DNA from: a virus
Reading direction: 5' to 3' (one strand)
IMG/VR virus record: IMGVR_UViG_3300009709_000009
Coordinates: 1 to 41,162 of that record
DNA length: 41,162 nucleotides
Under the pieces are notes generated by a model. That model was given only the letters and a program-made list of their open reading frames with translations, made no database searches and was not told the origin of the DNA. The translations under genes were made by a program, and so were the position numbers. The first letter of the stretch is position 1, and every line of letters begins with the position of its first letter. Below are positions 5,507 through 29,952 of the stretch, in pieces.

Positions 5507-5791
5507 TTAAACTTCGCTAATAGCGCGCTTGATATCATCTCGACGCTTCTTACGGTCAAATTCAGGTGATTTAAAGTCAGGCAAGCTTTCGTTGCCCATC
5601 TCAATATAACGCTCGCCTTTTGGGTTTCCATCGGGGAGAAGCGTCTTACGATAACCAGAAAGCGTGTCGTGCATCTTGCCATCCATACCCATGCACGGGG
5701 CGATGCTGTCCTGACGAAAATAGGGCTTAGACAGGGTACTGGACCCCATCTTTGCCCTGTGTTCTGCAACCATTTCTGAAATAGATTTCAT
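5507..5791 (-). CDS. Hypothetical protein (94 aa).
   Basis: ORF track. Its start overlaps the stop of 5791..6225. I preferred it over the overlapping alternative frame 5479..5769. Confidence 0.5.
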   Translation of the reverse strand: MKSISEMVAEHRAKMGSSTLSKPYFRQDSIAPCMGMDGKMHDTLSGYRKTLLPDGNPKGERYIEMGNESLPDFKSPEFDRKKRRDDIKRAISEV

Positions 5792-6225
5792 TATGGTGTA
5801 ATAACTCCTGCTGTACGAAGCTTTGCTAGCAGTGCGTTAAAATCCGTTACAAGCCCGGCAACGTCTGTTGCTGTGCTATTCGCCTGAGCCGCCTGAATTA
5901 GCACCGTACCGCGCACCGCACCGGATGATACACCAGGAATGGCGTGAACATGGTCATTACGAGCGAATGCCGTTCCTGTGCCAACTGCTGCTGCAGCGGA
6001 TAGAGCTGCTGGGGCCGTTGTCGCTGCAGCCGGGATTGCTGTATTGCCTGCAAGAGCGGTAGTTGCCGTAGTCCCCACTACAGGAGGAAACGTGGTAGGT
6101 TTGCCTGTTACATCAGCCCACGCAACTGCGCCGCCTGCGCCTGATTCAATCTGGTTACGAACTTCTTTAGCAAGTTCGGGGACCATCGAAAGTTCTACTA
6201 GTCGATCTACTGGTGTCTGTGCCAT
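5791..6225 (-). CDS. Short fibre-like protein (144 aa).
   Basis: Contains WADVTGKPTTFPP and ARNDHVHA, both typical of phage fibre repeats. Ala/Thr-rich. The C-terminus reads DFNALLAKLRTAGVI. Confidence 0.5.
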   Translation of the reverse strand: MAQTPVDRLVELSMVPELAKEVRNQIESGAGGAVAWADVTGKPTTFPPVVGTTATTALAGNTAIPAAATTAPAALSAAAAVGTGTAFARNDHVHAIPGVSSGAVRGTVLIQAAQANSTATDVAGLVTDFNALLAKLRTAGVITP

Positions 6226-6242: not shown

Positions 6243-7379
6243 TTAGTAATCTTCACCGAGTATTTCAGATGCCATTATACCCCATTCAGGTCTATACCAC
6301 ATAATGGGTTTTAATTCAGTACCTTCTATAGCAGGTGCGCGAAAGAAAGTCCAAGCAAGTCCTGTTCCATCACTCACCACCGAAATGTCTCTCACAGTGC
6401 AGTTTCCTGTAGCTGTAATGGTTATTTCTTCCAACAAGTTACTAGTTGTTCCGAATACCGCACCGCACGATATAAGGCCTTTTGCGGGTGCTCTATACGT
6501 AACTGTCACGCTTGCGGTTCTTAAAGAAACACTGCCACTTTCAACGTCAACTATGCACCTAGCCCCAGCCCTACGCGTGGCTGGAGGATGCTGGATGGTT
6601 AATGTTCCTTCTGTGAGGCCAGTATGGACGAATGATTCACCATCAATTGACCACCCTTCGCCACCTATAACCCATGGACCTGAAGGGGTAAAATCCTGGT
6701 CAACGTTAGTTCCACAGAACATATAACCATCAAACATAATCTCAGTATTTTCGACATACTGACGATGGTATTGATCGTTTTCCGTGTTAAAAAAGATACC
6801 CTTAATAACACCGCCATCAGTAGGCCCAACAGTCAAACTGGCGGCTGGAGAACCTTGCCCGTGCTGTTCATCGCTCCAACCAACCAACTCAGGCTGAATA
6901 CCAACCATTTCATTGACGCGTATTGCCCCTTGGTTGCAGTGTCCACCTGTCACATTGATGGTGAAGTCCGCGGCTTCCTGTGTCATTCCTGTGCCAACAG
7001 CAATGAGACCCAATAATGGACCTGATCTAGACTGATTAACAATAGTCAATGGTTCGCCACCATGTGCGATTTCAATGACTGGGTCTCCGGAATACTGGCA
7101 AGCAAGCTCTACAACAATGCAGTCAGACGCTAGGTCAAATTCTCTCGAGAAGTTATCCAACCCATTGTCATTAAGAGCAACGTAATCCATTGCTCCCCAC
7201 TGAACTGGCGATGGAGGTTCTCCACCTTGTATTACCAGAGGAACCCCGCCGCTTTCTACAAGCGTAATTGGTGAACCTAAGCCATTCTCAGCAACAGTAG
7301 CTAATGGCGCTCCACTGACAACTGATACAACAGGAGCGCCGTTTGGTGAGATGACTACGGGGAATCCATTATTCGGCAT
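6243..7379 (-). CDS. Hypothetical beta-rich virion-module protein (378 aa).
   Basis: ORF track. The N-terminus carries reiterated G-x-P-V/L-x-x-V units (GFPVVISPNGAPVVSVVSGAPLATV...GSPITLVESGGVPLVI). I recognised no family. Confidence 0.55.
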   Translation of the reverse strand: MPNNGFPVVISPNGAPVVSVVSGAPLATVAENGLGSPITLVESGGVPLVIQGGEPPSPVQWGAMDYVALNDNGLDNFSREFDLASDCIVVELACQYSGDPVIEIAHGGEPLTIVNQSRSGPLLGLIAVGTGMTQEAADFTINVTGGHCNQGAIRVNEMVGIQPELVGWSDEQHGQGSPAASLTVGPTDGGVIKGIFFNTENDQYHRQYVENTEIMFDGYMFCGTNVDQDFTPSGPWVIGGEGWSIDGESFVHTGLTEGTLTIQHPPATRRAGARCIVDVESGSVSLRTASVTVTYRAPAKGLISCGAVFGTTSNLLEEITITATGNCTVRDISVVSDGTGLAWTFFRAPAIEGTELKPIMWYRPEWGIMASEILGEDY

Positions 7380-11373: not shown

Positions 11374-12927
11374 TCACCTTCTACGCTGCATTGTCAACGG
11401 CTTTGCGTAAACAGCGTTATAATCTTGCACAGGATCTGGTTTCTTCATTTTGCCGGTCGTCATTCTATCCATTAGCTGACCTGCAAGGCCCAACGCGTCA
11501 ACCTGGTCATCATGAACTCCTACAGGGAAACTCATCATTTCGCTTATCAACGCTTCCAAACCCGGCAAGTCCTCACTGATATACAGACCAGACAAAGCCA
11601 TGCGACCACGAATAGACTGCGCGCGCACGGACTTGTCGCCACGGGTTGGGAACTGCTCACGCGCCACATACGAACCAGTCTCCAGCATACGTTTCACAAG
11701 GAACGGTCCAACACCTGATTTAATCTGTCCTGTTTCCTCAGCCCAACCAATCGGCTTCCACTTGCGTACCAAATCACAGAATGAATCAACCCACCTATCA
11801 GAGGATGATTGCTGCCGCCATAGATCTAGTAGCCAAACACGATCCATAGAATCAACGCCAACGACAACGTGAACAGTGTAATCTCCACCGTTGTTTGTAA
11901 CTGCATAGTCGGACGCTCCGTAGATTGAAATGGTTTCCCGCAGCGGGATCTGAGATGCGGGGACAATCTTGAGCCATTCCTTTTTGAAATAATCACCGCT
12001 GTCTGGGGCTGGCCGCTGCTGGAATAGTGCTGACCATGTGCGCGGGTTCTTTCTAAAGTTAGACCAATGCCTTTCATCAAACCACTCAGGCCAGATCATT
12101 TCCCCAATCTTACGACCTAAAGGATCATCTTCACGTTCGCACTCGGCTTGGAGGCTGATAACCTCCCATTCAAATCCATCCTTCCCCATGATAATACCGG
12201 ACTCACCGTTGTAGTTATCAGGTAGAATGCGTCCCGTAGGGTCATCCTCATGCCATCGAGTAAGAATGAAGGCCACACTTCCTCCAGGCTTTAAGCGCGT
12301 CTTTACTGAATCCTCATACTCGTCCCATGTCCGCTGTCTGATAGTTTCTGAATCTGCGTCCTGACGCCCTTTGATTGGATCGTCGATAGCAATGAAGTCA
12401 GCACGGTTACCTGTGATGCCGGAGATAATACCGCCTGACATATATTCAGACCCATTAGCCAGCGCCCATTCGTCAGCGGCCGCCTGATCTCCAGAAATTC
12501 CCGTATCGAACAATGCGGTGTATTTTTTTTGCTTAATGATTGATCGTGTTCTGCGGCCAAACTTCTTAGCCATGTCAGACCCGTAAGACACTCCAATCAT
12601 TCTGAAGCCGGGGGTAGTTCCCATAGCCCATGAAGGCGCCACCACGCTGGCATATGTTGACTTAGCGCTACCTGGCGGCATGAACAACATAAGGCGACCG
12701 TAAGGCTTCTCGATACAACGCTGTAAAGCCTCAAGCATCAATATGTGATGATGAGCAAGAACCGTCTCCGCTAGATGCAAGGCCGTATCACTTGTGTCGT
12801 CCTGATCCTCAACAGGCGCGCCTGGAACATCAATATATCGGGCATAGTCTACAAGCGATCGCCTAGCCTTCCGTCTTGCTAGAAGCTCCTGCGCGGCCTG
12901 CTGTGGCGATATGGGCAAGTTCTTCAT
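11374..12927 (-). CDS. terL: Terminase large subunit (517 aa).
   Basis: Walker A-like MPPGSAKST, an N-terminal ARRKARRSLVDYARYI motif, a C-terminal nuclease-type region (YGASDYA...DD) and a position after terS. Confidence 0.9.
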   Translation of the reverse strand: MKNLPISPQQAAQELLARRKARRSLVDYARYIDVPGAPVEDQDDTSDTALHLAETVLAHHHILMLEALQRCIEKPYGRLMLFMPPGSAKSTYASVVAPSWAMGTTPGFRMIGVSYGSDMAKKFGRRTRSIIKQKKYTALFDTGISGDQAAADEWALANGSEYMSGGIISGITGNRADFIAIDDPIKGRQDADSETIRQRTWDEYEDSVKTRLKPGGSVAFILTRWHEDDPTGRILPDNYNGESGIIMGKDGFEWEVISLQAECEREDDPLGRKIGEMIWPEWFDERHWSNFRKNPRTWSALFQQRPAPDSGDYFKKEWLKIVPASQIPLRETISIYGASDYAVTNNGGDYTVHVVVGVDSMDRVWLLDLWRQQSSSDRWVDSFCDLVRKWKPIGWAEETGQIKSGVGPFLVKRMLETGSYVAREQFPTRGDKSVRAQSIRGRMALSGLYISEDLPGLEALISEMMSFPVGVHDDQVDALGLAGQLMDRMTTGKMKKPDPVQDYNAVYAKPLTMQRRR

Positions 12928-13719: not shown

Positions 13720-14388
13720 TCATGCATCCTCCCTGACAATATTTTTATCATAGCTCTTTCGATAGCCAAAGTCTATGCCTGAGTATCCCGTTGTTTTCGT
13801 GACATGATGCTGGCAGTATCGGCTTTTCAGGTGGCGTGTATGAGAGCAAAACCTATGATTTTCTGGTCCCGATGTTAAAGGATAGAAACATCCAGTGTTT
13901 TCGACCAATGATAGACCTGGCAACCTTCCAATCTCGTATTCATCAAGACCCGGATCAAAGTATGTAGCTGTTTTCGTCCCATGGAATTGTGGATGAACGC
14001 GTCCTGCATTCGAGATAGTCTTTGCCTTCTTAGGCTTATCTGGTGATGATGCACGACGACTAGGCATGATAGACCTGTTGCGTTGAGCAAGAAGTTGAAC
14101 AGCGTTTGTTGTCACACCCATTTCTGAGGCTATTTCCTCGTATGTCTTACCCTCTTTCCATAGCTTTCCGGCTTTTACAATATCCAGGTTCTGAATAAAA
14201 GACCCTCTTTTTTTAATCCCTTCCTTTGTTGGAAACAGGTCCTTATTCCGGCTTGCCATTCCTGAAACCATGTTTCGGGTTATTCCATATTCCTTTGCTA
14301 TATCGAGATATGATTTGTCATTTGCCCACATAAGAGCGCATGCCTGAATGATCTCCGGCGTCCAGCGCCAGCTTGCACGAGGGGTCAT
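13720..14388 (-). CDS. GcrA-like cell-cycle regulator with a duplicated N-terminal HTH (222 aa from ATG 14388).
   Basis: There are two copies of the GcrA N-domain pattern: W-TPEIIQACALMWANDKSYLDIAKEYGITRNMVSGMASRN and IVKAGKLWKEGKTYEEIASEMGVTTNAVQLLAQRN. The GcrA-type C-terminus is GCFYPL..GPENHRFCSH...SRYCQHH. An AAGGAGA RBS lies 7 nt before ATG 14388. Confidence 0.75.
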   Translation of the reverse strand: MTPRASWRWTPEIIQACALMWANDKSYLDIAKEYGITRNMVSGMASRNKDLFPTKEGIKKRGSFIQNLDIVKAGKLWKEGKTYEEIASEMGVTTNAVQLLAQRNRSIMPSRRASSPDKPKKAKTISNAGRVHPQFHGTKTATYFDPGLDEYEIGRLPGLSLVENTGCFYPLTSGPENHRFCSHTRHLKSRYCQHHVTKTTGYSGIDFGYRKSYDKNIVREDA

Positions 14389-14546
14389 TTGGAATTCTCC
14401 TTCTGATAACGCCGCACAGCTAACACCAATTGAGACATACATTCCGCACTGTGCTTTCCCGCCTTATGCGCTTCAACTTCTTTGATTAGGACTTCCACCA
14501 GGTGGTTGCGTGAGCCGCCTTTGCGGGAGTTGTTAGGGTCGTACAT
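14385..14546 (-). CDS. Hypothetical 53-aa protein, translationally coupled to the GcrA-like gene.
   Basis: Not in the track because it is under 60 aa. I translated it by hand as MYDPNNSRKGGSRNHLVEVLIKEVEAHKAGKHSAECMSQLVLAVRRYQKENSK. A GAGGAG RBS precedes it. Its stop forms an ATGA overlap with ATG 14388. Confidence 0.5.
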   Translation of the reverse strand: MYDPNNSRKGGSRNHLVEVLIKEVEAHKAGKHSAECMSQLVLAVRRYQKENSK

Positions 14547-15804: not shown

Positions 15805-16200
15805 CATAAAATGTGAGAAAAAGTTAAGTCATTGATTTTGTTAATTATCTCGTTTTTTCTCTAAAAATCTCAACAGAAAAGAGAGGTATGTTTTCTTTTA
15901 AAATCAATGACTTAAATTACGTTTACACATTATTTCGGGATTTCGGTATATAAGGGGTAATATTGGCAATCATAATATCAGGAGTCCTATAAGGGGTAAG
16001 CACTTGATTTTATTAAATAATAAAGATTCTAACCTATACAGTATCTAGAGATACTATATTCTTCTTTACCCCTCTATTACAGGAAAAGCCGAGATAATGT
16101 GTAAATGCATGCTAAAACATTGAAAAGTAAAAACAATCCTTATCTCAAAAATCAATGTATTTTAGCGGGATTATGTGTAAAACAAAAAACACCGACAAGG
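15805..16200. promoter_or_regulatory. AT-rich divergent control region or candidate origin with three repeat families.
   Basis: Family A: AAAATCAATGAC(TTAA) at 15900-15915, its perfect 16-nt inverted copy at 15824-15839, and a partial copy at 16147-16158. Family B: ATAATGTGTAAA at about 16094-16105, TTATGTGTAAAA at about 16171-16182, and an inverted copy at about 15921-15933. Family C: TATAAGGGGTAA at 15949-15960 and 15988-15999, plus an inverted AGGGGTAA at about 16067-16074. A further palindrome, agtatct-ag-agatact, lies at about 16050-16065. Confidence 0.6.
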
Positions 16201-16201
16201 G

Positions 16202-16230
16202 TTGACAAGCTCCAAATGATGGATTATTCA
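16202..16230 (+). promoter_or_regulatory. Candidate rightward sigma70-type promoter.
   Basis: TTGACA (16202-16207), a 17-nt spacer, then TATTCA (16225-16230). It is followed by an AAGGAGAAAA RBS and ATG 16263. Confidence 0.5.
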
Positions 16231-16262
16231 TAAATAATTACTTTTATAAAGGAGAAAACAAA

Positions 16263-16481
16263 ATGAAAATAGAGAGCGGAATAAAATTCATGAAAGATGA
16301 AGGTCGCGGTCGTCCTAATAAATATCCATTTGGAGAAATGGAAGTCGGGGATAGTTTTCCAGTTCCTGAAGGTGATGGTTTTAGGTCGAGATGTGCAGCC
16401 AGCGCATACGGAAAACGTTATTCAATGAAGTTTTCAGTTCGTAAATATGAAGGTGGATATCGTTGCTGGAGAGTCGCGTAA
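16263..16481 (+). CDS. Conserved small phage protein (72 aa), first gene of the rightward operon.
   Basis: Strong AAGGAG RBS. GRGRPNKYPFGEMEVGDSF...RCWR is a recurrent pattern in phage early proteins. Confidence 0.65.
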   Translation: MKIESGIKFMKDEGRGRPNKYPFGEMEVGDSFPVPEGDGFRSRCAASAYGKRYSMKFSVRKYEGGYRCWRVA

Positions 16482-16495
16482 GGGAATGATTGAAA

Positions 16496-18844
16496 ATGGC
16501 AATTTCATATCTTCAGCAGTTTGCTGAATCGGGTAATCGCGTCTTCTCTTTGGAAAGCATTGACGGCATTTATTGCGGTTGCGGCAATACAAAATGCACA
16601 GCCACAGGCAAGCATCCTGTTTCCGCCAATTGGCAAAATACACCAGAATGGGACGAGGATCAGATTGACGGCTTGAATGCCATGATAGAGCATTTGGGGC
16701 GAGGATTCGGCGTTCTCTGCAACAATCTTCTTGTTGTTGATGTTGACGCCAAGAATGGCGGCATTGAATCATATGCTCGTCTATTGGAGAGATTCCCTGA
16801 TGTTGCCAGCGCTGGATTGATCGTAGAAACTGGCTCTGGTGGAGGCTCTAAGCATCTTTATTTCTCTTTGCCCGCTGATATTCACACGATCCAGTCAAGC
16901 CCTGAATTTCCGGGGATCGATTTCAAGCATACTGGTTTTGTTGTTGGGCCTGGGTCGCCGCACAAGAGCGGCAAAAAATATAACGTCCTTTCTGGCAATG
17001 TTGATGAGATTGATAAGGCTCCTGAGGGACTGGTTGCTTTTCTGAAGCGACCAGAGAGAAGGCATGTCGAATTTGAAGGCTCCAGCACAGACATTAGCGA
17101 TAATTCTCTGCGTTCAATGTTGGGTTGCTTGACATGCTACGATGAATATTCCGATTGGGTTAAGATCGGCATGGCAATCCATGACGCAACGCAGGGGAAT
17201 GGCGTTGCAATATGGGATGAATGGTCTAAGCGTAGCAGTAAATATAATCCTGAATCCATAGACATACGCTGGCATTCATTCGGCAAGTCTTCCAATCCTG
17301 TAACTGTTGGCACGTTGATCAAGCTGGCAAAAGACAGTGGATGGATTGAACGAGTTGAAATGGACGATGTTCCACTGCAAGGTTGGTTTGCTAAGGCTTT
17401 AACCGGATCTTCTGTCACTGAAGGGATGACTAAGGAAGACATTAAGGATGTAAAAAGCCCGCTCAAGGGGTGCCCTGTCGATGTGTCTACGATTGATCTT
17501 ACTATGCCTCCAGGCTTTTGTGGGGAAGTGACGCGATGGATAAATACGCAGTGCCGTTATCCACGTCTAAACCTTGCTGCAATGGCTTCTCTATATGCTA
17601 TTGGCAATATATCAGGTCTAAACTACGCAGTAGATGACAATTCACAAACTCGTGCCAATATGGCTTTGTTTTGTGTTGCTGGCTCTGGAACGGGCAAGGA
17701 TGCAGTTCTCGAGGCTGTCAGTAAAATAATAATCACAGCTGGAATGTCCGAATGCAACCACGGTAAGATTAAGTCTGACCGTGAAATGTATCAAAACCTG
17801 ATACACCATCAAGCAGCATTCTATACTATTGACGAAGTCGGAGCACATCTGGCTAAGATTAGCAACGCTGGACGTTCTGGAGCTTCTCACCTTGAAGGTG
17901 TTATTGAAACGTTCATGGCCGTATACAGTAAGGCTGAATCTTTTCACATCCTTGGAGGAGATGACAAAAGAGAACTAAGTAAAATTTTGCGTGACCGTCT
18001 TTCTTTCTATGCGCGAAAGGTGGAGGAAAACGAAGACGTTCAAGAAAGCAAAATGCATATTGAAGCTATCAAAAAACGCCTATTGAATGCAGACAGATTG
18101 GTGGAACCGTTCCTTTCATTAGCTGGATTTACCACTCCGACGCAGTTTTCAAGAATGATGACAATTGAGAATGCAGAAACTGGTTTTCTTGGTAGAACAA
18201 TTATGTGCGTCGAGCCTGACATTAATCCTTATCCCAACCAAGGCTTTACGAAAGAGAACATGCCACTGGGAATGAGTATGAAAATATCGCAGCTGGCTAG
18301 TGCAGGGTCAACCAAGACCGAAGGAGAGAGGATTGAACGTAGAGGCGATTTGCATCTCGTAAAAATGACAGACGAGGCAAAAAAACTTATTGATCGTTGC
18401 ATGATATGGGTAGTTGATTACAACCAGAGTAAGATTGAATTAGGCCTAGAGCCTTTCTCAGGACTTTACCGTCGAGTTTGTGAGAAGGCGATTAAGATGT
18501 CTCTTATTCTTGGTATTGCAGATGGAGAGATCGACGTTGAACACGTTAAGTGGGCTATGGCTGCATCAATGCGCGATGTTGAGGAAAAGGTCAGCGCCAT
18601 TACGATTGAAGATAAGTCGTTCTCGAAGTCTGATAAGCTTGTAGCTTCAATTCTAAAATGCGTTAAAAACAAACCTGGCCAAACTTTTTCTTATATCTTT
18701 GGAAGATCGAACATCCGCGGGAAATATCAACGGGAAGACGTTCAAAAGGTAATAACAGCTATGGTTCAAAAGAATGAATTGCGCGTTCAAGTAGACACAG
18801 ACAAACGCAACGGGGAAAAGTTAGAACGATATTTCATACGTTAA
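16496..18844 (+). CDS. PrimPol (AEP primase-polymerase) / PriCT / DUF3987-type P-loop helicase fusion (about 782 aa).
   Basis: AEP motifs LLVVDVDAKNGG, TGSGGGSKHLYF and GFVVGPGSPHKSGKKY. PriCT-like YSDWVKIGMAIH...WDEWSK...W.SF. Walker A CVAGSGTGKDAV. The likely start is ATG 16496; the track starts at TTG 16490. Confidence 0.85.
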   Translation: MAISYLQQFAESGNRVFSLESIDGIYCGCGNTKCTATGKHPVSANWQNTPEWDEDQIDGLNAMIEHLGRGFGVLCNNLLVVDVDAKNGGIESYARLLERFPDVASAGLIVETGSGGGSKHLYFSLPADIHTIQSSPEFPGIDFKHTGFVVGPGSPHKSGKKYNVLSGNVDEIDKAPEGLVAFLKRPERRHVEFEGSSTDISDNSLRSMLGCLTCYDEYSDWVKIGMAIHDATQGNGVAIWDEWSKRSSKYNPESIDIRWHSFGKSSNPVTVGTLIKLAKDSGWIERVEMDDVPLQGWFAKALTGSSVTEGMTKEDIKDVKSPLKGCPVDVSTIDLTMPPGFCGEVTRWINTQCRYPRLNLAAMASLYAIGNISGLNYAVDDNSQTRANMALFCVAGSGTGKDAVLEAVSKIIITAGMSECNHGKIKSDREMYQNLIHHQAAFYTIDEVGAHLAKISNAGRSGASHLEGVIETFMAVYSKAESFHILGGDDKRELSKILRDRLSFYARKVEENEDVQESKMHIEAIKKRLLNADRLVEPFLSLAGFTTPTQFSRMMTIENAETGFLGRTIMCVEPDINPYPNQGFTKENMPLGMSMKISQLASAGSTKTEGERIERRGDLHLVKMTDEAKKLIDRCMIWVVDYNQSKIELGLEPFSGLYRRVCEKAIKMSLILGIADGEIDVEHVKWAMAASMRDVEEKVSAITIEDKSFSKSDKLVASILKCVKNKPGQTFSYIFGRSNIRGKYQREDVQKVITAMVQKNELRVQVDTDKRNGEKLERYFIR

Positions 18845-18997: not shown

Positions 18998-19025
18998 CAA
19001 AAAGCCCCGGCGTAAAAACCGGGGC
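18998..19025 (-). terminator. Intrinsic terminator after the leftward two-gene island, possibly bidirectional.
   Basis: gccccgg-cgtaaaaa-ccggggc. The minus-strand RNA is followed by UUUUUGCAUU. It lies 7 nt downstream of the stop of 19032..19247. Confidence 0.7.
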
Positions 19026-19523: not shown

Positions 19524-20267
19524 ATGTCTATCCTATCCAAAGCCACCACGAACCGCACTTGTGGTCACGTAATCACGCTAGTAGGTACGCCAGGAACTGG
19601 TAAAACATCTACAGCGTGTACTTTCCCAGAGCCATATCTTATCCGAACCCAGGGAGAAGACGTACCGCGTGACGTTAATCCTGTTCCTGCAAGCCTCGGT
19701 ATTACAGACACGACTGATTTTCTGTGGCAGCAGTTGACGGCGCTCTTGCAGGATGAGCATGATTACCAAACTCTGATCATCGACAGCGTCACTGGTTTGG
19801 AATCAATGTTCATTCAGGACATCCTGCGCCAAGACACCAAAGCGAAGGGAATAAACCAAGCTCTAGGTGGTTATGGTGCTGGACCAGCGGCGGTTGCAGC
19901 CAATCATATGCGCGTTCGAAAGGCGGTTGAACTGTTGCGTACAAAGCGTAATATGAACACTGTGTTCGTGGCTCATGCTGACATTGGCCGCATTGACCCT
20001 CCAGACAGTGAAGGGTTCAATCAGTACACATTGCGACTGGCTAACAAGTCCATGGCTCCATACACAGATAGCGTTGACGTTGTTGGTTTTCTGCGTCAGG
20101 CAACTATTCTTCGTGGCGATGAAGGTGAAACCAAGAAAGCTATTGGCACTGGTGAGATTATCCTAACGTCTTATCTTAACCCAGCGTTTGTTTCTAAGAA
20201 TCGTCTCGGATTAAAAGAAGACATTACGGTCGTGCAGGGTGAGAATCCCCTTGCTGCATATCTATAA
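19524..20267 (+). CDS. Sak4-like / AAA_24 RecA-fold ATPase (247 aa).
   Basis: Walker A LVGTPGTGKTS, Walker B LIIDSV, and a position directly upstream of a DUF669-type gene. Confidence 0.75.
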   Translation: MSILSKATTNRTCGHVITLVGTPGTGKTSTACTFPEPYLIRTQGEDVPRDVNPVPASLGITDTTDFLWQQLTALLQDEHDYQTLIIDSVTGLESMFIQDILRQDTKAKGINQALGGYGAGPAAVAANHMRVRKAVELLRTKRNMNTVFVAHADIGRIDPPDSEGFNQYTLRLANKSMAPYTDSVDVVGFLRQATILRGDEGETKKAIGTGEIILTSYLNPAFVSKNRLGLKEDITVVQGENPLAAYL

Positions 20268-20285: not shown

Positions 20286-20882
20286 ATGTCATTCTGGAAC
20301 ACTTCGAGCGGCGAAAGCGCCGTAACAAATTCTACATCGTTTGAGATTGAAGGGGGGGGCGATCTTAGCCCTATCCCGAACGGAACTAAGGTTCTGGCTA
20401 TCGTTGAATCTGCCGGTAAGCGCACTGTAAGAGACAGTGTCGAAGAATACGCAGAGATCAAGTGGTCTGTACTAAAGCCTGAAATCTACAAAAACCGCAA
20501 GATTTTTCAGAAGGTTTGGTGCTACGATCTAGACCCTTCTGCGAAAGATCAAACAAAAGCGCAAGCCAAGAAAGATAAGGCTTTGCGTATGTTGGCAACC
20601 ATTGATTCCAACGCTGGCGGTAAGCTAGCTTCTGCTGGTGTAGAACCAACGTCTGAAGCGCTGGCGTTTGCACTCAACAACAAGACAATGGTTATTGGCT
20701 TGAACGTTTGGGAAATCAAAGACGCCAACGGAACGGCAACAGGCAACTGGGTCTATTCAGTAGCGCCAAAGGGCAGCGAAGTAACTTCCGATGCTGAAGC
20801 TGCAAAGAATAAACCAGCGCTAGTGCAGCGCGCACAGAGTTCGGGTATGCGGGATATTGTAGGAGAAGATATCCCTTTTTAG
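20286..20882 (+). CDS. DUF669-type phage ssDNA-binding-like protein (198 aa).
   Basis: IPNGTKVLAIVESAGKRT...AEIKWSVL...NRKIFQKVW matches the DUF669 pattern. It shows the usual pairing with an AAA_24 ATPase. Confidence 0.6.
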   Translation: MSFWNTSSGESAVTNSTSFEIEGGGDLSPIPNGTKVLAIVESAGKRTVRDSVEEYAEIKWSVLKPEIYKNRKIFQKVWCYDLDPSAKDQTKAQAKKDKALRMLATIDSNAGGKLASAGVEPTSEALAFALNNKTMVIGLNVWEIKDANGTATGNWVYSVAPKGSEVTSDAEAAKNKPALVQRAQSSGMRDIVGEDIPF

Positions 20883-20942: not shown

Positions 20943-21425
20943 ATGAAAATTTGCTTTAAATGTGAGGTCGAAAAACCATTTTCTTGCTTTTATAAGCATA
21001 GCAAGATGGTGGATGGATATCTGAATAAATGTAAAGAATGCGCTAAATCTGACGCTAGAAAAAACAGATCAGAAAATATTGAATATTATAAAGAATATGA
21101 CGCTTGGAGATTTCAAAACGATCCACGGGTTAAGGAGCGTCATAAAAGGTATGGTAAGACTATTGCATACAAAGAATCCATGGCTAAATCTACAAAAAAG
21201 TGGGTTAGAAATAACCCTGAAAAGAGGGCTGCACACATAATACTCGGAAATGCCGTAAAATATGGGAAAGTTATAAAGCCTTCAAATTGTGAGAAGTGTG
21301 GAAGTCAGGTAAAGTCAAAAAACCTTCATGCTCATCACCATGATTATACAAAGCCGATAGATGTAAATTGGCTATGTGTCCAATGTCATGTAAACGAACA
21401 CAAAGATGGAGAAAACAATGCTTAA
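20943..21425 (+). CDS. HNH endonuclease, homing-endonuclease-like (160 aa), AT-rich.
   Basis: N-terminal CxxC...CxxC, and a C-terminal CEKCG...HAHHHDY...WLCVQCHVNEH HNH motif. Confidence 0.8.
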   Translation: MKICFKCEVEKPFSCFYKHSKMVDGYLNKCKECAKSDARKNRSENIEYYKEYDAWRFQNDPRVKERHKRYGKTIAYKESMAKSTKKWVRNNPEKRAAHIILGNAVKYGKVIKPSNCEKCGSQVKSKNLHAHHHDYTKPIDVNWLCVQCHVNEHKDGENNA

Positions 21426-21969: not shown

Positions 21970-22605
21970 ATGACCTACACATACTTCGACGTAGAAACCA
22001 TTCCTGACCAATCAGAAGGCGCATTGGAGAGGGCAAAAGAATCAATTAAGGTTCCAGCCAATTATAAGAACCCAGATACCATAGCGGCGTATATTGAAGA
22101 AAACGCACAAGAAGCATGGGAGAAAACCGCTCTTGATGGGTGGAAGGGGCATGTTGCTTCAATATCGGTACATGACAGAAAATTCATAATTCGTCATGTT
22201 AATGAAGAGCGTGAATTTCTGAAAAAGTTCTTCCATCACTTGGAATGCAAGGGGTCTATTACTCTCGTCGGCCACAACATCATTGGATTTGACGTTCCTT
22301 TCCTAACCAAGCGTGCATTGGTTTTGGGAGTTAAACTGCCACTGGATTACATTTGGCCGCGTAATCTTAAGCCGTGGGACACTCGCGTTTTCGATACCAT
22401 GCTGCAAATGGGGAATGGCAAGGATTTTATTTCTCTGGACAACCTTGCAAAGAACCTTGGCATTAAAGGCAAGGGAAATACTACGGGCGCACAGGTCCAT
22501 TATATGTGGCAGAATGGCCTGCATGATGAGATTGCGGAATATTGCGCGGATGACGTTCGTATTGTTCGTGAAGTCCATGAGCGTTTTCTTGCGTGCGGTT
22601 GGTGA
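21970..22605 (+). CDS. DnaQ/PolB-type 3'-5' exonuclease, PF10108-like (211 aa).
   Basis: ExoI YFDVET, ExoII GHNIIGFDVPFL and ExoIII YCADDVRIV. Confidence 0.8.
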   Translation: MTYTYFDVETIPDQSEGALERAKESIKVPANYKNPDTIAAYIEENAQEAWEKTALDGWKGHVASISVHDRKFIIRHVNEEREFLKKFFHHLECKGSITLVGHNIIGFDVPFLTKRALVLGVKLPLDYIWPRNLKPWDTRVFDTMLQMGNGKDFISLDNLAKNLGIKGKGNTTGAQVHYMWQNGLHDEIAEYCADDVRIVREVHERFLACGW

Positions 22606-22622: not shown

Positions 22623-23006
22623 ATGGTTGTGAAAATATACTGCTGTGGGTGCGAAGCTCATGTTAACGCCCGCCTAACTGATGGAAAAGAAATATACCCC
22701 CATCGTAAAGACCTTTACAAATTACCATTCTGGAAATGTGATGAATGCAATAATTTTGTAGGTTGTCATCACAAAACTAATGATAGAACGGCTCCTTTAG
22801 GATGTATACCTACCAAGGAAATAAGAAGTGTCAGGAGCTTAGTTCACTCTGAGTTAGACCCTTTATGGAAAGGTGGAAAATATACGAGAAAACAGCTCTA
22901 TGCCATATTAAATCAAAAGACGGGTATGGAAGGTGGATATCATACCGCAAAGATAAGATCTGTTGATGATGGAATGAAAATTTATCAACTTTTGAAGAGT
23001 TTATAA
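22623..23006 (+). CDS. Zinc-finger protein, DUF3268-like (127 aa).
   Basis: CCGC...WKCDEC...CHH followed by LDPLWK...R..LY......GY.HTA.I. Confidence 0.6.
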   Translation: MVVKIYCCGCEAHVNARLTDGKEIYPHRKDLYKLPFWKCDECNNFVGCHHKTNDRTAPLGCIPTKEIRSVRSLVHSELDPLWKGGKYTRKQLYAILNQKTGMEGGYHTAKIRSVDDGMKIYQLLKSL

Positions 23007-23008
23007 TC

Positions 23009-24835
23009 ATGACCTTCACCCTCAGACCATACCAGCAGGAATGCCACGACAAACTAACTGAATACCTACGCCAATACACAGAGCCGTGTCTTATAGATGC
23101 GGCTCCGGCTGCGGGTAAGTCTTACCTGATAGCGGCAATTGCTGATTTTCTATACAAAGCTAGCAATGGAAAGCGCGTTTTATGTCTTGCCCCATCTAAG
23201 GAGTTAATTGAGCAGAATGTCGAGAAATATCGTTTAATAGGTGAACCATGCTCTATATTTTCAGCAAGCAGCGGCGCGAAATCCACGAGACACAAAGTCG
23301 TTTTTGGCTCACCTTTGACTGTGAAGAACGCTATATCAAGATTCTCCAGTGGCTACGCCGGGGTCGTTATAGACGAGTGTCACGGCATTACGCCAACGAT
23401 TAAGGATATTATTGATGCAATGCGCGAGGGCAACCCTAATCTGCGCGTTATAGGATTCTCTGGTACTCCTTACCGCCTTGGTGATGGTTATATTTATCAA
23501 GTAGATGATAACAATATCACGCTACCGCCTGAGCTAACGCGTAATCCATATTTCCACAAACTGGTGCATAGAGTTTCCGCAAAGGAGATGCTGGACGCTG
23601 GCTTTATATGCCCGATGAAGATTGGCGCTGTAAACGCCAGTAGATACGACACCAGTGGTTTGCATTTGAACCGTATGGGGCAATTCAACGCTGATGAAGT
23701 AGATCGCGCTTTTGTAGGACACGGACGCAAGACAGCTGCTATCGTTGCGGATGTTGTTGAACAGTCTCGACCATATAGCGGCGGGGTAATGCTTTTTGCG
23801 GCTACTGTTAGCCATGCGCAAGAGATTATGGCGTCACTGCCTCCTAGTATCAGTGCTATGGTTATAGGTGAGACGCCAAAGGGTGAACGCAAAGATATTA
23901 TTGATCGGTACAAGAACAGGATTATCCGATACCTCGTATCGGTTGGGACACTCACAACCGGATTTGACGTTCCTCATACGCAAGTCATTGCTTTGTTGCG
24001 GCAGACGGAATCCAGTAGCCTTTTGACGCAAATCATGGGTCGTGCATGGAGATTGCATCCAGGTAAGGAATATTCTGTACTTCTGGACTACGCTTCCAAT
24101 ATCGACAACCATTTCCCAGATGGAGACATTTATAACCCTGTCATTCGCGCAAAGGCTGAAAAAGGAGAGGCTATTCCTCTTAGCGCCAAATGCCCCGAAT
24201 GTTCTTACTCCAACCAATTCTCCTGTATCCCCGAATACGCAGAGCATGAGAAGGACGAAAACGGTTATTGTATGGACGTTTTTGGCAACAGAGTGGAAAC
24301 AGAATATGGACCATTGTCGGGGCATTATGGTCGGCGATGCATGGGGTATATCCCGGCGGGGATGGGAAAAGTAGACAGGTGTGGATATTACTGGACATCG
24401 AAAGAATGCGATGCGTGCGGTGAAAAGAATGACGTGACAGCTAGGCGATGCATTGGCTGCGGTTGCGAGCTTATAGATCCTGCAAAAAAACTTATCGGAG
24501 AGTTTAGGGCTTTAAAAAAAGACCCATACCAACCTCAATGTGACAAGATAATCTCTATGGAGACAAAGCCCAGCGTTTCAAGATCTGGTAACTCTGTCAT
24601 AAGGGTAGATTTTGTTACAGAACATAGACATTTCAGCATTTATCTAATGCCAGAAGGCCGAATACCCGCGAAGCAAATGGAATACGATTTATATGTCCGC
24701 GCAACGCAAGATGGAACGATAATACCTAAAACAGTTTCATACAGAAAGTCTGATGATAAATTTTATAGAATCATGGCCTTCAATAAACCAGAAGATAAAG
24801 AGCCAGATGTTGAAACTTGGAGAAAAACAGGATAG
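23009..24835 (+). CDS. SF2 DEAD/DEAH-box helicase with a C-terminal zinc-ribbon region (608 aa).
   Basis: Motif I AAPAAGKS, motif II VIDECH, motif III SGTP, motif V TTGFDVP and motif VI QIMGRAWR. C-terminal CPEC and CDACG...CIGCGC. Confidence 0.85.
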   Translation: MTFTLRPYQQECHDKLTEYLRQYTEPCLIDAAPAAGKSYLIAAIADFLYKASNGKRVLCLAPSKELIEQNVEKYRLIGEPCSIFSASSGAKSTRHKVVFGSPLTVKNAISRFSSGYAGVVIDECHGITPTIKDIIDAMREGNPNLRVIGFSGTPYRLGDGYIYQVDDNNITLPPELTRNPYFHKLVHRVSAKEMLDAGFICPMKIGAVNASRYDTSGLHLNRMGQFNADEVDRAFVGHGRKTAAIVADVVEQSRPYSGGVMLFAATVSHAQEIMASLPPSISAMVIGETPKGERKDIIDRYKNRIIRYLVSVGTLTTGFDVPHTQVIALLRQTESSSLLTQIMGRAWRLHPGKEYSVLLDYASNIDNHFPDGDIYNPVIRAKAEKGEAIPLSAKCPECSYSNQFSCIPEYAEHEKDENGYCMDVFGNRVETEYGPLSGHYGRRCMGYIPAGMGKVDRCGYYWTSKECDACGEKNDVTARRCIGCGCELIDPAKKLIGEFRALKKDPYQPQCDKIISMETKPSVSRSGNSVIRVDFVTEHRHFSIYLMPEGRIPAKQMEYDLYVRATQDGTIIPKTVSYRKSDDKFYRIMAFNKPEDKEPDVETWRKTG

Positions 24836-24924
24836 AATGAATTGAGCGGATAGGACGGCCATCCGAAAAGCAATTACGCTGATTGCCTGCCGCTATTTCA
24901 AAAGCGAACCTTAGCGAGGTTTAT

Positions 24925-25440
24925 ATGACGGAAATATCCCCAGAATATCTTAGATCTATTTTGACTTATTATCCGGATAATGGTCTTCTTTTCTGGAAAT
25001 ACAGGGAAGATTATTACAAGAGATGGAACGTTAGATATGCCAACAATCAGGCGTTCAATGTTACCTCTGATAGTGGATATTATAGAGGTTCCATAAATAA
25101 AAGATGGTTCCAAGCGCACAGAGTGGCGTGGGCTATTCATTATGGTGAGTGGCCTAGTGATATATTAGATCACATAAATATGGTAAAAACAGACAATAGA
25201 ATATGCAATTTAAGAATTGCTAGCAAATCAAAAAATGCAATGAACATAAGAAAACATTCAGATAATAGATCTGGATATAAAGGTGTAGACTTTAGCAAGG
25301 TAAGTAACAAATGGAGAGCTAGGATAATGAAGTTAGGAGTAAATTATAATCTTGGATTTTTTGATAGTAAAGAAGAAGCATATGAAGCTTATTGTATAGC
25401 GGCATCTAATTTACACAAAGAGTTTAAGAGGACAAAATGA
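24925..25440 (+). CDS. HNH_3 plus AP2-domain homing endonuclease-like protein (171 aa), AT-rich.
   Basis: HRVAWAIHYGEWP..ILDHINMVKTDNRICNLR (HNH_3) followed by SGYKGVDF..SNKWRARI...NLGFFDSKEEAYEAY (AP2). GAGG lies 6 nt before ATG 24925. Confidence 0.8.
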   Translation: MTEISPEYLRSILTYYPDNGLLFWKYREDYYKRWNVRYANNQAFNVTSDSGYYRGSINKRWFQAHRVAWAIHYGEWPSDILDHINMVKTDNRICNLRIASKSKNAMNIRKHSDNRSGYKGVDFSKVSNKWRARIMKLGVNYNLGFFDSKEEAYEAYCIAASNLHKEFKRTK

Positions 25441-25850
25441 CAAAATACCCCCCATTCCTACGCATCTACGGCGACCTATCCTATCGCGGTCCATGCCCGC
25501 AAGAACTGGTTGAACAAATTTCAATTGTGAACCAGATCAGGCGTGTGTATCCAGATACGTATGGTCGTATTGCCGTGCATATCCGAAATGAAGGTGCAAG
25601 AACGCACGGGCAGGTGGTAAGGCATAAAGCTGAAGGCATGGTTAAGGGAGCGCCTGATTTGGTGATTCCTGGTAAACCAACGTTCCTGTGCGAGATTAAA
25701 CGCCAAAACTCGCAATTAAGCCGCGTATCGAAAGAGCAGTTAGAATATCTGGAAGCCGCACATAATGAAGGTGCATTCGTTTGTGTAGCATTTGGCGCTA
25801 AAGCGGCGTGGGAAGGATTTGAGGAATGGTTGAAATTAACGAAATCCTAA
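25437..25850 (+). CDS. VRR-NUC domain nuclease (137 aa).
   Basis: The PD-(D/E)xK core is GAPDLVI...LCEIKR...SKEQLEYLEAAHNEGAFV. Confidence 0.8.
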   Translation: MTKYPPFLRIYGDLSYRGPCPQELVEQISIVNQIRRVYPDTYGRIAVHIRNEGARTHGQVVRHKAEGMVKGAPDLVIPGKPTFLCEIKRQNSQLSRVSKEQLEYLEAAHNEGAFVCVAFGAKAAWEGFEEWLKLTKS

Positions 25851-26611: not shown

Positions 26612-28012
26612 ATGACCATCCCAGATGAAGCAGTGCAGGCAGCACAGAACGAGTTCAACAAATTCGGCTATACCGCCCCCAATGAAAAGGAGTTGATTGC
26701 CGCCATCACAGCCGCCCTGCCTTTCCTGCAAGGGGTGAAGGTGAAGGCGCTGGAGTGGCCTAAAAAGCTGGAGTTTAATCATGTGCTTGAGGCTGGGGTA
26801 GCGCGTTACCGGCTGATAAACTCATACGATGATGTTTATAGATGTTCGGTAGTGCCATACGATGACGACGCAGCCGACTTATGCGGAAATACGACCTTAG
26901 AAGGCGCCAAAGCCGCAGCGCAGTCCGACTATGAGGCTCGTATAAGGTCCGCAATCGAGTTGTTAGGAAATTCCGAACAACTCAACGATGTGCATACTAC
27001 GCACACCCTTTCTGAGCAGACGACCGATATGGGAAATCCCATAACGCTCGATATCGGAAAACCGATAACGGACAAAACTACGCAGATGGTTATTGCTGAG
27101 GCCATTGAGAATGTATGGTGGCAGACGAGGGATTGTGATGTTGAAGAAATAGATAGCATTATCGATCACTTGCGCAACAATGGCTTGCTGGTTGTTGGAA
27201 GTCAGCGCTTTCAACAGATGGCAGATGCCATCCAACAAGCGTCAGCTTATCTCGCCTTAACGCAACCCAACAGCGCAGAAAAATTACTCGCTGATCTTGA
27301 TGCAGCATTGAAACCCGTTGCGGGAATTCCCGTTTCGTCCCCATCCCTACGCGCGCAGGCGTTGGAGGAAGGTAAGCAGCTATATGGTCCATTCGGCCAT
27401 TTGACCGGGGATAGAAACCTTTCAGAGGATACGTGGGAGGTTTATGACGAACCTGCCGCCACTGTCGGAGATATTTTTTCGATCCCTCTTTATGCCCTCT
27501 CCGACCCATTCAAGGAAATCGGCTTAGATGTGGATGTCAAAGCAGATGTTCTGTCACCTGATCCCGCTCAGTATCTTGAGATGGCAGTACAGGTTGCCGA
27601 TAAGGCAAATAAAGGCTGGCTGAAAAAGCGCGATGTGACCGCCAACAAAAAAGAAGCTAGCGATTATGAGACAATGGCTATTGCCGCCTCTCATATATCC
27701 ACAGCAATCCGCGCCCTCTCGTCTCAGTCTGTAGCGGACGAGGGCAAGGGCGAGTGGCGCGAAATTGAATACAATCACGCCTTGAAAGGTCGCCGCGTTA
27801 ACCCTGCATATTTTCCATCCACTGGCGAGGTTTGCGAAATCAGCGGACCTAATTGCGATGACGATAAGGGTTATACGTGGGGCGAAACCACAGTCCTATG
27901 GCAAAATGAAATGTTCGTTCTCTATGGGAAAGATGGGTATTGGCCTGTCCTTCATAAGCATGAACACGTCCTGTTTCGCCCCCTCCCAGACTCACCAGGA
28001 GCGTCGGAATGA
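26612..28012 (+). CDS. Large ORFan (466 aa from ATG 26612).
   Basis: ORF track. The track starts at GTG 26549; ATG 26612 has GGAAGGA 9 nt upstream. I recognised no catalytic motif. Confidence 0.6.
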   Translation: MTIPDEAVQAAQNEFNKFGYTAPNEKELIAAITAALPFLQGVKVKALEWPKKLEFNHVLEAGVARYRLINSYDDVYRCSVVPYDDDAADLCGNTTLEGAKAAAQSDYEARIRSAIELLGNSEQLNDVHTTHTLSEQTTDMGNPITLDIGKPITDKTTQMVIAEAIENVWWQTRDCDVEEIDSIIDHLRNNGLLVVGSQRFQQMADAIQQASAYLALTQPNSAEKLLADLDAALKPVAGIPVSSPSLRAQALEEGKQLYGPFGHLTGDRNLSEDTWEVYDEPAATVGDIFSIPLYALSDPFKEIGLDVDVKADVLSPDPAQYLEMAVQVADKANKGWLKKRDVTANKKEASDYETMAIAASHISTAIRALSSQSVADEGKGEWREIEYNHALKGRRVNPAYFPSTGEVCEISGPNCDDDKGYTWGETTVLWQNEMFVLYGKDGYWPVLHKHEHVLFRPLPDSPGASE

Positions 28013-29408: not shown

Positions 29409-29638
29409 AGTTGACCAAAGCACGATTTGCTACCGTTTACAGCACCGTGGCGTTACTGACTTTCGGTTACGCTTCGACTGATCCACGGTTTTCATGCGGG
29501 AGCGGCGCTCTTGCTCCAGAGGGCGACATGTCTTGTGCTGTTATGTTGGGCGCGACCTTAGCAGCGCCTGCATGGCCGATATTCTGGACGTGGGAAGGCT
29601 TCTCTATCGGTCGCCAAGACCTGAAAGGAGGGGAGTGA
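29405..29638 (+). CDS. Small membrane protein (77 aa).
   Basis: Hydrophobic segments VYSTVALLTFGYA and AVMLGATLAAPAWPIFW. ATGA overlap with the upstream stop. Confidence 0.5.
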   Translation: MKLTKARFATVYSTVALLTFGYASTDPRFSCGSGALAPEGDMSCAVMLGATLAAPAWPIFWTWEGFSIGRQDLKGGE

Positions 29639-29952
29639 TGACTCCAAGAGGTAAAATTCTAGAGGATATTTCAGACATAGCAGAATCTCATAATCTAATC
29701 CTTAAGGATTTATTAAATCCAGGTAGGTTTAAACATATCGTAAAAGCAAGAAACGAGGCTATGTGGTACGTTCATGAAAAATATGATAGATCTCTTACGC
29801 AGATAGGAAATATATTTAATATGCACCATTCCACAGTTTTAAATGGAATTGGAAGTCACATGGCAAAATCTGGAATAAAAGATGAGTGGGCCGATATTTA
29901 CCATCAAAGAAAAGAACGGAAAAGGATCAATCGTGAGATGCAGCGGGCCTAG
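29638..29952 (+). CDS. DnaA domain IV-only (DnaA-box-binding HTH) protein (104 aa), AT-rich.
   Basis: LKDLLNPGRFKHIVKARNEAMWYVHEKYDRSLTQIGNIFNMHHSTVLNGI aligns by eye to the DnaA C-terminal DNA-binding domain (..R...v.aR..AMyL....t..Sl..IG..F...HsTVl). A strong AAAGGAGGGGAG RBS precedes it. Confidence 0.7.
   Translation: MTPRGKILEDISDIAESHNLILKDLLNPGRFKHIVKARNEAMWYVHEKYDRSLTQIGNIFNMHHSTVLNGIGSHMAKSGIKDEWADIYHQRKERKRINREMQRA

Follow-up and report, generated by a model that had tools for sequence, protein, structure and literature searches.

Primase-helicase module without a recognizable DNA polymerase in a phage related to Brucella phage Tb

A phage that encodes a primase-helicase fusion and no recognizable DNA polymerase raises the question of which enzyme elongates its DNA. 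We addressed this question for IMG/VR virus record IMGVR_UViG_3300009709_000009, positions 1 to 41,162 (the whole analysed stretch of 41,162 nucleotides, hereafter the window), in which the gene at 16496-18844 on the plus strand encodes a protein of 782 residues. The phage is related to Brucella phage Tb (Perisivirus), which it matches in gene order and genome size. The first-pass annotation, made from the sequence alone, had proposed the fusion as a candidate replicase that might pair with a separate proofreading exonuclease in an unusual split replisome, and had named complete dependence on host DNA polymerase III (Pol III) as the alternative. Our analysis upholds its domain assignments and the absence of a polymerase, but not the split replisome, and dependence on host Pol III is better supported. 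Many phages carry a primase-helicase without a recognizable polymerase, and this gene set has been annotated before; the finding is genuine but unremarkable.

The reading frame is open over 16490-18844 from a TTG codon, and the ATG at 16496 gives a product of 782 residues, whose alignment with the orthologue of Tb starts at residue 1. This single polypeptide combines an archaeo-eukaryotic primase (AEP) Prim-Pol domain, a PriCT_2 domain, an MCM-like DUF3987 ATPase and a winged helix. An AlphaFold model built on 35 orthologues reached a predicted local distance difference test score (pLDDT) of 85. The AEP primase-polymerase catalytic domain (residues 1-200; 16496..17095, plus strand as for all parts of the gene) is followed by the PriCT_2 helical domain (residues 202-282; 17099..17341), which is modelled as a helical bundle, and by a disordered linker with pLDDT below 50 (residues 287-322; 17354..17461). 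The MCM-like AAA+ helicase domain of the DUF3987 type, of superfamily 6 (SF6), spans residues 330-705 (17483..18610), and the C-terminal winged helix, modelled as three helices then a β-hairpin, covers residues 710-782 plus the stop codon (18623..18844). The Pfam profile of Prim-Pol (PF09250) matched at E 5e-23, with 82.7 bits against a cutoff of 22.8, and that of PriCT_2 (PF08707) matched right after the AEP domain at E 1.2e-19, with 70.9 bits against a cutoff of 22 (residues 215-280). The score of 25.1 bits to DUF3987 (PF13148) is slightly below the 27-bit cutoff; this family is also present in the precomputed Pfam domain list for the protein, and the orthologue in Vibrio phage 1.030.O (22% identity; alignment A3) reaches 52 bits to it. 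In addition, phrog_3022, annotated as "DNA primase", aligns to the protein from end to end (E 1.4e-163).

The four motifs quoted in the first-pass annotation (DVD, SGGGSKHLYF, GFVVGPGSPH and GSGTGKD) were all located in the protein, and its three-part AEP-PriCT-DUF3987 architecture and gene coordinates agree with Pfam, PHROGs, Foldseek and the sequence itself. The AEP motifs I, II and III correspond to D82-V-D84, S118-K-H120 and I141-D142, respectively, where the classical motif III is D142 within GIDFK, and the GPGSPH string is not motif III. Across 35-38 orthologues, these motifs with D82, D84, H120 and D142 are invariant, as are the Walker A residues G400-K401, the Walker B residues D446-E447 and the arginine finger R567 of the ATPase, indicating that selection acts on both active sites.

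A sequence search of the PDB with the protein returned chance matches only, so that a structure-based search was required. Using Foldseek, the best PDB matches of the N-terminal part were to pRN1 ORF904 (9aam, E 1.6e-5; 1rni, E 9.6e-5 and template modelling score 0.57; 3m1m), with E values from 1.6e-5 to 1e-4, and those of the C-terminal half were to Mcm7, Mcm5 and archaeal MCM or CMG subunits, with E values from 1e-4 to 1e-3. Judged by profile, motifs and fold, the protein is an AEP Prim-Pol of the PF09250, pRN1 ORF904-like type, with predicted activities. PriCT_2 is a PriL-like module needed for primer initiation (PMC5862659). Proteins of the DUF3987 family, which is placed in SF6, typically end in a winged helix-turn-helix (PMC4889955), and the modelled winged helix at residues 710-782 is a candidate DNA-binding or origin-binding module. 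Helicase activity in such proteins has been demonstrated only for the PriCT-DUF3987 protein AgaPH, which is a 5'-3' helicase (PMC11724360).

To look for a polymerase, all open reading frames (ORFs) of the window of at least 100 residues were scanned with Pfam, and the early-region ORFs together with the large ORFs were also scanned with PHROGs. Within this scope no family A, B or C DNA polymerase was found, in line with the earlier claim that families A and B are missing, and the sole polymerase-family matches in the window are those of the exonuclease domain encoded at 21970-22605. The coding density leaves no large unassigned stretch in the window. The need for two profile collections is illustrated by Stenotrophomonas phage Salva, whose annotated polymerase (L096:78-2297) of 740 residues matches phrog_1252 "DNA polymerase" at E 6e-166, with no Pfam match at E <= 0.01 and no PDB sequence match at E <= 0.001. 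Pfam-only screens are thus insufficient, as they can miss a polymerase family. A search with the Salva polymerase against the window in six frames gave no tblastn or phmmer match.

Two large ORFs deserved separate attention. The first-pass annotation had singled out the ORF at 26612..28012 on the plus strand, which encodes 466 residues and has no Pfam match, as a possible cryptic polymerase, and we reject this candidate, as it is a mosaic of small shuffled modules without a polymerase fold. Its homologues cover only 10-56% of its length, as separate blocks joined to varied partners. It contains at least four small blocks, each common to a different Ochrobactrum/Brucella prophage protein, and the prophage partners fused to these blocks carry MazG-like, HNH, Lar-type or dNTP (deoxynucleoside triphosphate) pyrophosphohydrolase domains. 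The AlphaFold model shows small domains with disordered linkers between them and has no PDB fold match at E <= 0.001, and in Tb a counterpart exists for residues 52-161 only. This ORF also provides an example of domain shuffling in its own right. The other is the ORF at 6243-7379 on the minus strand, in the head gene block, which encodes 378 residues rich in glycine, valine and predicted β-structure. It is the only large ORF without a match anywhere among Pfam, PHROGs and PDB sequences, and it is largely absent from Tb, in which only the first ~58 residues have a counterpart. It probably encodes a variable head decoration or fiber. The adjacent gene at 5791-6225 has a head-fiber-like C-terminus.

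Full-length orthologues of the 782-residue protein number in the hundreds, and AEP-DUF3987 fusions have been described as phage replicative primase-helicases (PMC4889955, PMC5862659). The ordered module, consisting of the primase-helicase, Sak4, a single-stranded DNA-binding protein (SSB), an exonuclease, a superfamily 2 (SF2) helicase and a VRR-NUC nuclease, recurs in T1-like, Vibrio, Serratia and marine phages; carriers include Salmonella phage gmqsjt-1, Vibrio phage 1.030.O, Serratia phage Rovert, Idiomarinaceae phage Phi1M2-2 and metagenomic contigs of ~40 kb. On one contig a Toprim_3+DUF3987 protein is followed by AAA_24, an ORF of 225 residues and PolB_exo2, and TOPRIM-DUF3987 relatives are present in BFVD; judged from these domain matches, the priming domain of the module is interchangeable, with Toprim in place of AEP. 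To our knowledge, a Toprim primase cannot be a replicase.

In Salva (60.8 kb), a homologous primase-DUF3987 protein is encoded alongside a RecB-like exonuclease, an SF2 helicase and the phage's own DNA polymerase (phrog_1252). Since a phage polymerase coexists with it, the primase-DUF3987 protein of this lineage appears to act as a primosome. Moreover, fusion of primase and helicase seems not to be obligatory, because in the brucellaphages Iz and R/C, both propagated reference phages, frameshifts split the gene into 496+284 and 236+555 residues, respectively (PMC5350156); this observation does not discriminate between replication models. As a separate observation, one of the 79 contigs described below (L142:2973-15227) carries a second PrimPol-helicase-like ORF on the opposite strand plus a Salva-type DNA polymerase (E 2.5e-70), and it may be either a chimeric assembly or a polymerase-encoding relative.

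The exonuclease at 21970..22605 (plus strand) is a stand-alone DEDDy 3'-5' exonuclease of the PolB-exo type with 211 residues, which matches PF10108 at E 3e-17 (63.4 bits against a 24-bit cutoff). Its motifs D7/E9, H102-N103...F107-D108 and Y191...D195 are intact and conserved, and it is 81.5% identical to Tb ORF52. The first-pass annotation had recognized this PolB-type enzyme, as well as the SSB (phrog_9002) and the SF2 helicase (ResIII + Helicase_C) of the module, and all three identifications are sound. The domain is stand-alone in 73 of 73 DEDDy homologues, which have ~200-260 residues except for two proteins of 343 residues and one fragment of 126 residues.

We further compared 79 IMG/VR loci that encode full-length PrimPol-helicase orthologues at 37-76% identity. 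A total of 31 large ORFs in these loci fell outside the Pfam scan, with sizes and positions that fit terminase and portal genes. Sak4 is encoded in 74 of the 79 loci and the SF2 helicase in 41, many loci being too short to reach the position of the latter. The slot between SSB and SF2 helicase is occupied by a YqaJ (λ-Exo-type) nuclease in 49 loci and by a DEDDy enzyme in three, all of the Tb clade; the two enzymes never occur together, and the slot is never empty where both flanking genes are visible. YqaJ fills the slot even on a contig of 42.9 kb that is laid out like Tb and has a GcrA-like gene. Enzymes of the λ-Exo type degrade DNA in the 5'-3' direction and cannot edit a 3' primer terminus. 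As the usual occupant is of this type, the slot most plausibly serves the annealing protein.

More distant DEDDy homologues point in the same direction. Among 35 loci retrieved with an alignment of 10 closer sequences, 18-20 have a gene for Erf, Sak4 or an SSB next to the exonuclease gene or a few kilobases away at most, and no PrimPol is encoded in those loci. The large neighbors of distant DEDDy genes are DnaB-type helicases, integrases, SF2 helicases and one β-clamp, and no polymerase family was found near them among the 25 of 41 neighbor families listed. For example, exonuclease, Erf and SSB genes lie in a row in Vibrio phage F89 g1, an AAA_24 gene is followed by the exonuclease gene in the lambdoid Pseudomonas phage KLEP17-4, which has a DnaC-type protein, and another homologue is found on a NinG-carrying contig. 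A proofreading subunit is expected to be fused to or consistently encoded with its cognate polymerase, and the DEDDy exonuclease is neither. Judged from gene context, the DEDDy exonuclease is not a partner of the PrimPol and belongs to the Sak4/SSB recombination cassette, and the proposed pairing of PrimPol and proofreader is not borne out by the distribution of the two exonuclease types over the 79 loci or by the PrimPol-less Erf/Sak4/SSB surroundings of DEDDy homologues. On one IMG/VR contig (L015:428-2591), a DEDDy homologue is directly followed by a phage-encoded DNA polymerase III β-clamp gene, which hints that some stand-alone DEDDy exonucleases may work with host Pol III components.

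A Sak4-type (core-only RecA-like) single-strand annealing protein of 247 residues is encoded at 19524..20267 on the plus strand (PF13479 AAA_24, E 4e-25; phrog_124 "Sak4-like", E 3.5e-33), and the phage SSB at 20286..20882 on the same strand (phrog_9002, E 3.5e-62) ends in EDIPF. The canonical SSB family does not match this protein, whose counterparts in relatives are of the DUF669 type. Among SSBs of orthologous modules, 47 of 62 end in the tip typical of bacterial SSBs, for example DDDIPF or DDEIPF. In bacteria, this tip docks the χ subunit of Pol III and other host factors. The C-terminal sequences suggest that module SSBs plug into host SSB-binding partners. In agreement with the hallmarks of a Sak4-SSB recombination module taken from the literature (PMC2896510, PMC5928155), the AAA_24 protein is shorter than 290 residues and the adjacent SSB has an acidic C-terminal tail. 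Sak4 is known to work with its cognate SSB (PMC5928155).

Altogether, the best explanation, which we hold with moderate confidence, is that the module encodes a primosome, whose primers would be passed on to host Pol III, together with a recombination cassette. The MCM-like DUF3987 ring with its C-terminal winged helix would load on the phage DNA and unwind it, and the pRN1-type AEP domain, helped by PriCT_2, would make primers and may extend them briefly. The host Pol III holoenzyme would then take over from the presumed hand-off and perform the bulk of DNA synthesis. Sak4, SSB, the DEDDy exonuclease, the SF2 helicase and the VRR-NUC and Endo VII nucleases would form a recombination cassette rather than replisome subunits, with putative roles in recombination-dependent replication, repair and concatemer resolution. 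We favor synthesis by the host polymerase because no polymerase is detectable in any ORF of at least 100 residues, because the same ordered module is widespread in other phages, because its priming domain is interchangeable, because the Salva homologue coexists with a phage polymerase, and because the SSB ends in EDIPF, the type of tip that most module SSBs share. The accompanying cassette is favored because its exonuclease slot mostly holds YqaJ and only in the Tb clade DEDDy, and because distant DEDDy genes lie beside Erf, Sak4 and SSB genes. Polymerases are encoded by only 49% of double-stranded DNA viruses, the host supplying missing parts (PMC4889955), and the characterized AEPs lack proofreading and are thought to be mainly primases in vivo (PMC5862659).

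Several points weigh against host elongation. A β-clamp-binding motif was searched for in the primase-helicase, and none was convincing; recruitment of Pol III is a presumed step. The acidic SSB tail could equally contact Sak4 (PMC5928155) or the phage helicase. The Toprim-swap argument is based on few examples, and a literature search for a requirement of T1-like phages for host Pol III gave nothing usable. Furthermore, the nearest structural match of the AEP domain, pRN1 ORF904, can polymerize DNA and is taken to be the replicase of its plasmid (PMC11724360). The PrimPol-helicases of NrS-1 and S-2L have been described from experiment as replicative or sole polymerases (PMC7102993, PMC8065100), and in S-2L the neighbors are alike, namely exonuclease VIII, an SF2 helicase and a VRR nuclease (PMC8065100).

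These points lend weight to the view that the PrimPol-helicase itself is the replicative polymerase, which would prime, unwind and elongate the whole 41-kb genome while the exonuclease takes no part in synthesis. We regard this as possible but rather unlikely. In its favor, the searches detected no polymerase besides it, all 38 orthologues keep the AEP catalytic triad unchanged, and the closest solved structure is that of a primase-polymerase, pRN1 ORF904; such conservation of catalytic residues, however, is equally expected of a primase. Precedents with similar gene neighborhoods exist (PMC7102993, PMC8718748, PMC8065100), although the NrS-1 protein gp28 belongs to other Pfam families and has no sequence similarity to the window protein. 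The AgaPP/AgaPH pair shows that an AEP can carry out strand-displacement synthesis when driven by a PriCT-DUF3987 helicase (PMC11724360). On the other hand, the same module works with a Toprim primase, and a homologous primase-helicase works beside a real polymerase in Salva. Moreover, the characterized AEPs are error-prone and lack proofreading (PMC5862659, PMC11724360), in contrast to the notably uniform genomes of brucellaphages (PMC10783043).

We consider improbable the split replicase of the first-pass annotation, in which elongation would fall to the PrimPol-helicase and proofreading in trans to the stand-alone DEDDy exonuclease. In its favor, AEPs have no editing function of their own (PMC5862659), and the exonuclease has intact catalytic motifs and a relationship to PolB editing domains. 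Of the early proteins, the exonuclease is also the one best conserved between Tb and the window (81.5% identity, compared to 74% for the PrimPol and 53-65% for the others). Against it, the same slot holds a YqaJ-type exonuclease, unable to edit the 3' end, at 49 of 79 loci, the T1-like module lacks the DEDDy enzyme, and DEDDy homologues lie mostly beside Erf, Sak4 or SSB genes in PrimPol-less phages with DnaB-, DnaC- or DnaD-type functions. A narrower version, in which the DEDDy enzyme displaced the usual YqaJ in the Tb-like lineage and supplies 3'-5' editing for an AEP replicase, is just as improbable in our view. Less credible still is a highly divergent polymerase hidden in an unannotated ORF, which we give hardly any weight. 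It is true that Pfam can miss phage polymerases, as in the case of Salva, whose enzyme was found by PHROGs, and that the 378-residue ORF matches nothing in Pfam, PHROGs or PDB sequences. Nevertheless, the early-region ORFs were scanned by PHROGs besides Pfam, the Salva polymerase matches none of the six frames of the window, the 466-residue ORF is a mosaic without a polymerase fold, and the 378-residue ORF sits within the head block, is rich in glycine, valine and β-structure, and is largely absent from Tb. The coding density also leaves little room for such an enzyme. Priming by the phage protein followed by elongation by host Pol III remains our preferred explanation.

Further genes of the early region lie on the plus strand. 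An Endonuclease VII-like/HNH zinc nuclease is encoded at 20943..21425 (phrog_2340 "endonuclease", E 2e-39), and the gene has no tblastn match in Tb. Downstream of the exonuclease gene, a DUF3268 zinc-finger protein (22623..23006; PF11672, E 2e-14) precedes the SF2 DNA helicase (23009..24835; ResIII/DEAD and Helicase_C in Pfam; phrog_16, E 1e-75), and a DUF3268 gene also precedes the helicase gene in Salmonella phage gmqsjt-1. The VRR-NUC-like nuclease at 25437..25850, a candidate junction resolvase, has a weak match to PF08774 and matches to phrog_824 and phrog_5702 "Holliday junction resolvase"; it shares 61% identity with Tb ORF49 and is kept at the end of the module in orthologous loci. An HNH-AP2 homing-type endonuclease gene (24883..25440; PF13392 and AP2; phrog_99) lies between the SF2 helicase and VRR-NUC genes, whereas the corresponding gene of Tb is found at the opposite flank of the helicase gene.

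Upstream of the primase-helicase gene, a repeat-rich intergenic region (15810..16262) separates the divergent late/regulatory and early gene blocks. The sequence WTWATGTGTAAA has three copies in this region and none elsewhere in the window (0 expected), AAAATCAATG has three copies against 0.24 expected and occurs nowhere else in the window, and TATAAGGGGTAA has two copies, again found nowhere else in the window. Several inverted repeats are also present, and the cumulative GC-skew minimum falls in the same region, where it is confounded by the switch in gene orientation. These sequence features make the region a candidate site of early promoters, of operators or of an origin of replication. 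It is followed by a small early ORF of 72 residues (16263..16481, plus strand) directly upstream of the primase-helicase gene, which has 43% identity to the equivalent region of Tb and a weak DUF7303 match below the cutoff. Downstream of the primase-helicase gene lies a GC-rich palindromic, terminator-like hairpin (19004..19025), and a terminator is annotated at the corresponding position of Tb. As this hairpin follows them, the small ORF and the primase-helicase gene may be transcribed as an early unit of their own.

The window was assembled as a circle. Its first and last 123 bases (1-123 and 41040-41162) are identical, which gives a genome of 41,039 bp for the 41,162 bases of the window. 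The overlap artificially doubles ~41 residues of a structural gene that spans the junction (minus strand, from ~40627 through the junction to 1510). Nucleotide similarity to Tb is confined to short stretches of ~74%, and most window proteins have Tb counterparts at 40-97% identity; by these comparisons the phage is a lineage separate from Tb at the species level. The large terminase (11374-12927, minus strand; 517 residues) is intein-free, and the Tb terminase bears an intein with an HNH gene; the homing elements thus differ between the two phages. The methyltransferase gene of Tb matched no counterpart in the window. Because the prophage homologues of the mosaic ORF at 26612-28012 come almost only from Ochrobactrum/Brucella, the host is probably to be sought among these bacteria. 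A small protein with a DnaA domain-IV-like helix-turn-helix (29494..29952, plus strand; PF08299, E 2e-12; phrog_27829) is conserved in Tb, in which ORF33 is annotated as a "replication initiation factor". A GcrA-like protein (13720-14442, minus strand) is likewise conserved in Tb, with GcrA-like genes also in more distant relatives (L010, L178), and both proteins resemble alphaproteobacterial regulators of cell cycle and replication.

The present analysis adds one Tb-like phage to a large annotated family with a primase-helicase and no polymerase. On elongation in such phages, experiments on NrS-1 and S-2L point to the PrimPol, and the comparative evidence presented here points to host Pol III. 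For genetic work on this question, the orthologous modules of T1-like coliphages and Salmonella phages are a tractable system. The DEDDy exonuclease should be annotated with the Sak4/SSB recombination cassette and not as a polymerase subunit.

Comparison with known systems places the protein most closely with ORF58 of the brucellaphages Tb and Pr, a "putative bifunctional DNA primase/polymerase" so annotated since 2012, to which it is 74% identical from end to end and with which it shares all three domains. The neighboring early genes of Tb and Pr are the same and in the same order, comprising Sak4-like, SSB, PolB-type exonuclease, SF2 helicase and VRR-NUC-like genes without an annotated polymerase, and relative to Tb the window adds the Endo VII-like gene, the DUF3268 gene and the 466-residue mosaic ORF. 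At a greater distance, the T1-like phage gmqsjt-1 (Drexlerviridae) has a full-length orthologue of ~32% identity over 93%, followed by AAA_24 (Sak4), DUF669 SSB, DUF3268, SF2 helicase and VRR-NUC genes, with no annotated polymerase in the 28 kb examined of its 46-kb genome. It differs in being a siphovirus of enterobacteria and in having Gp157 instead of a DEDDy exonuclease in the module.

The concept of a polymerase-less phage that replicates by its own PrimPol has been published for NrS-1 (PMC7102993, PMC8718748) and S-2L (PMC8065100), and PrimPol replication has been proposed by inference for the CRP-901 roseophages (PMC10149686). The first-pass annotation had cited NrS-1 as its precedent, and that precedent is real (PMC7102993). 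Similar to the window protein, NrS-1 gp28 joins an N-terminal AEP to a helical bundle and a ring ATPase at the C-terminus, in a phage without another polymerase, and the AEP folds are similar (6k9a, E 2e-3, Foldseek rank 23). However, gp28 consists of the NrS1 head, HBD and tail domains in addition to DUF5906, none of which the window protein matches at E <= 0.01; direct homology to gp28 is rejected, as BLASTP found no similarity and the two proteins fall into different Pfam families. Cyanophage S-2L, by description, also has a PrimPol-helical bundle-helicase fusion as its sole possible polymerase, with exonuclease, SF2 helicase and VRR nuclease as neighbors, but its helicase is VirE/SF3-like and its exonuclease is of the exonuclease VIII (RecE) type (PMC8065100).

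The best structural match for the AEP domain and helical bundle is pRN1 ORF904 of a Sulfolobus plasmid, the founding member of PF09250, which shares the order of AEP, PriCT-type bundle and C-terminal helicase. It differs by its low identity (14-19%), by PriCT-1 and an SF3 helicase in place of PriCT_2 and the MCM-like DUF3987, and by its origin from an archaeal plasmid. A further comparison is with the PrimPol and helicase associated with prokaryotic Argonaute, AgaPP and AgaPH, the latter being the only biochemically characterized PriCT-DUF3987 protein (PMC11724360). AgaPP differs from the window protein in its BT4734-like AEP, which has a lysine in motif II and does not belong to PF09250, and the pair consists of two proteins from an integrated element rather than a virulent phage. 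The split ORFs of brucellaphage R/C, with 236 and 555 residues, would resemble this two-protein layout (PMC5350156). AgaPH binds the AEP and stimulates its strand-displacement synthesis, and the window protein fuses the same three modules into one chain (PMC11724360).

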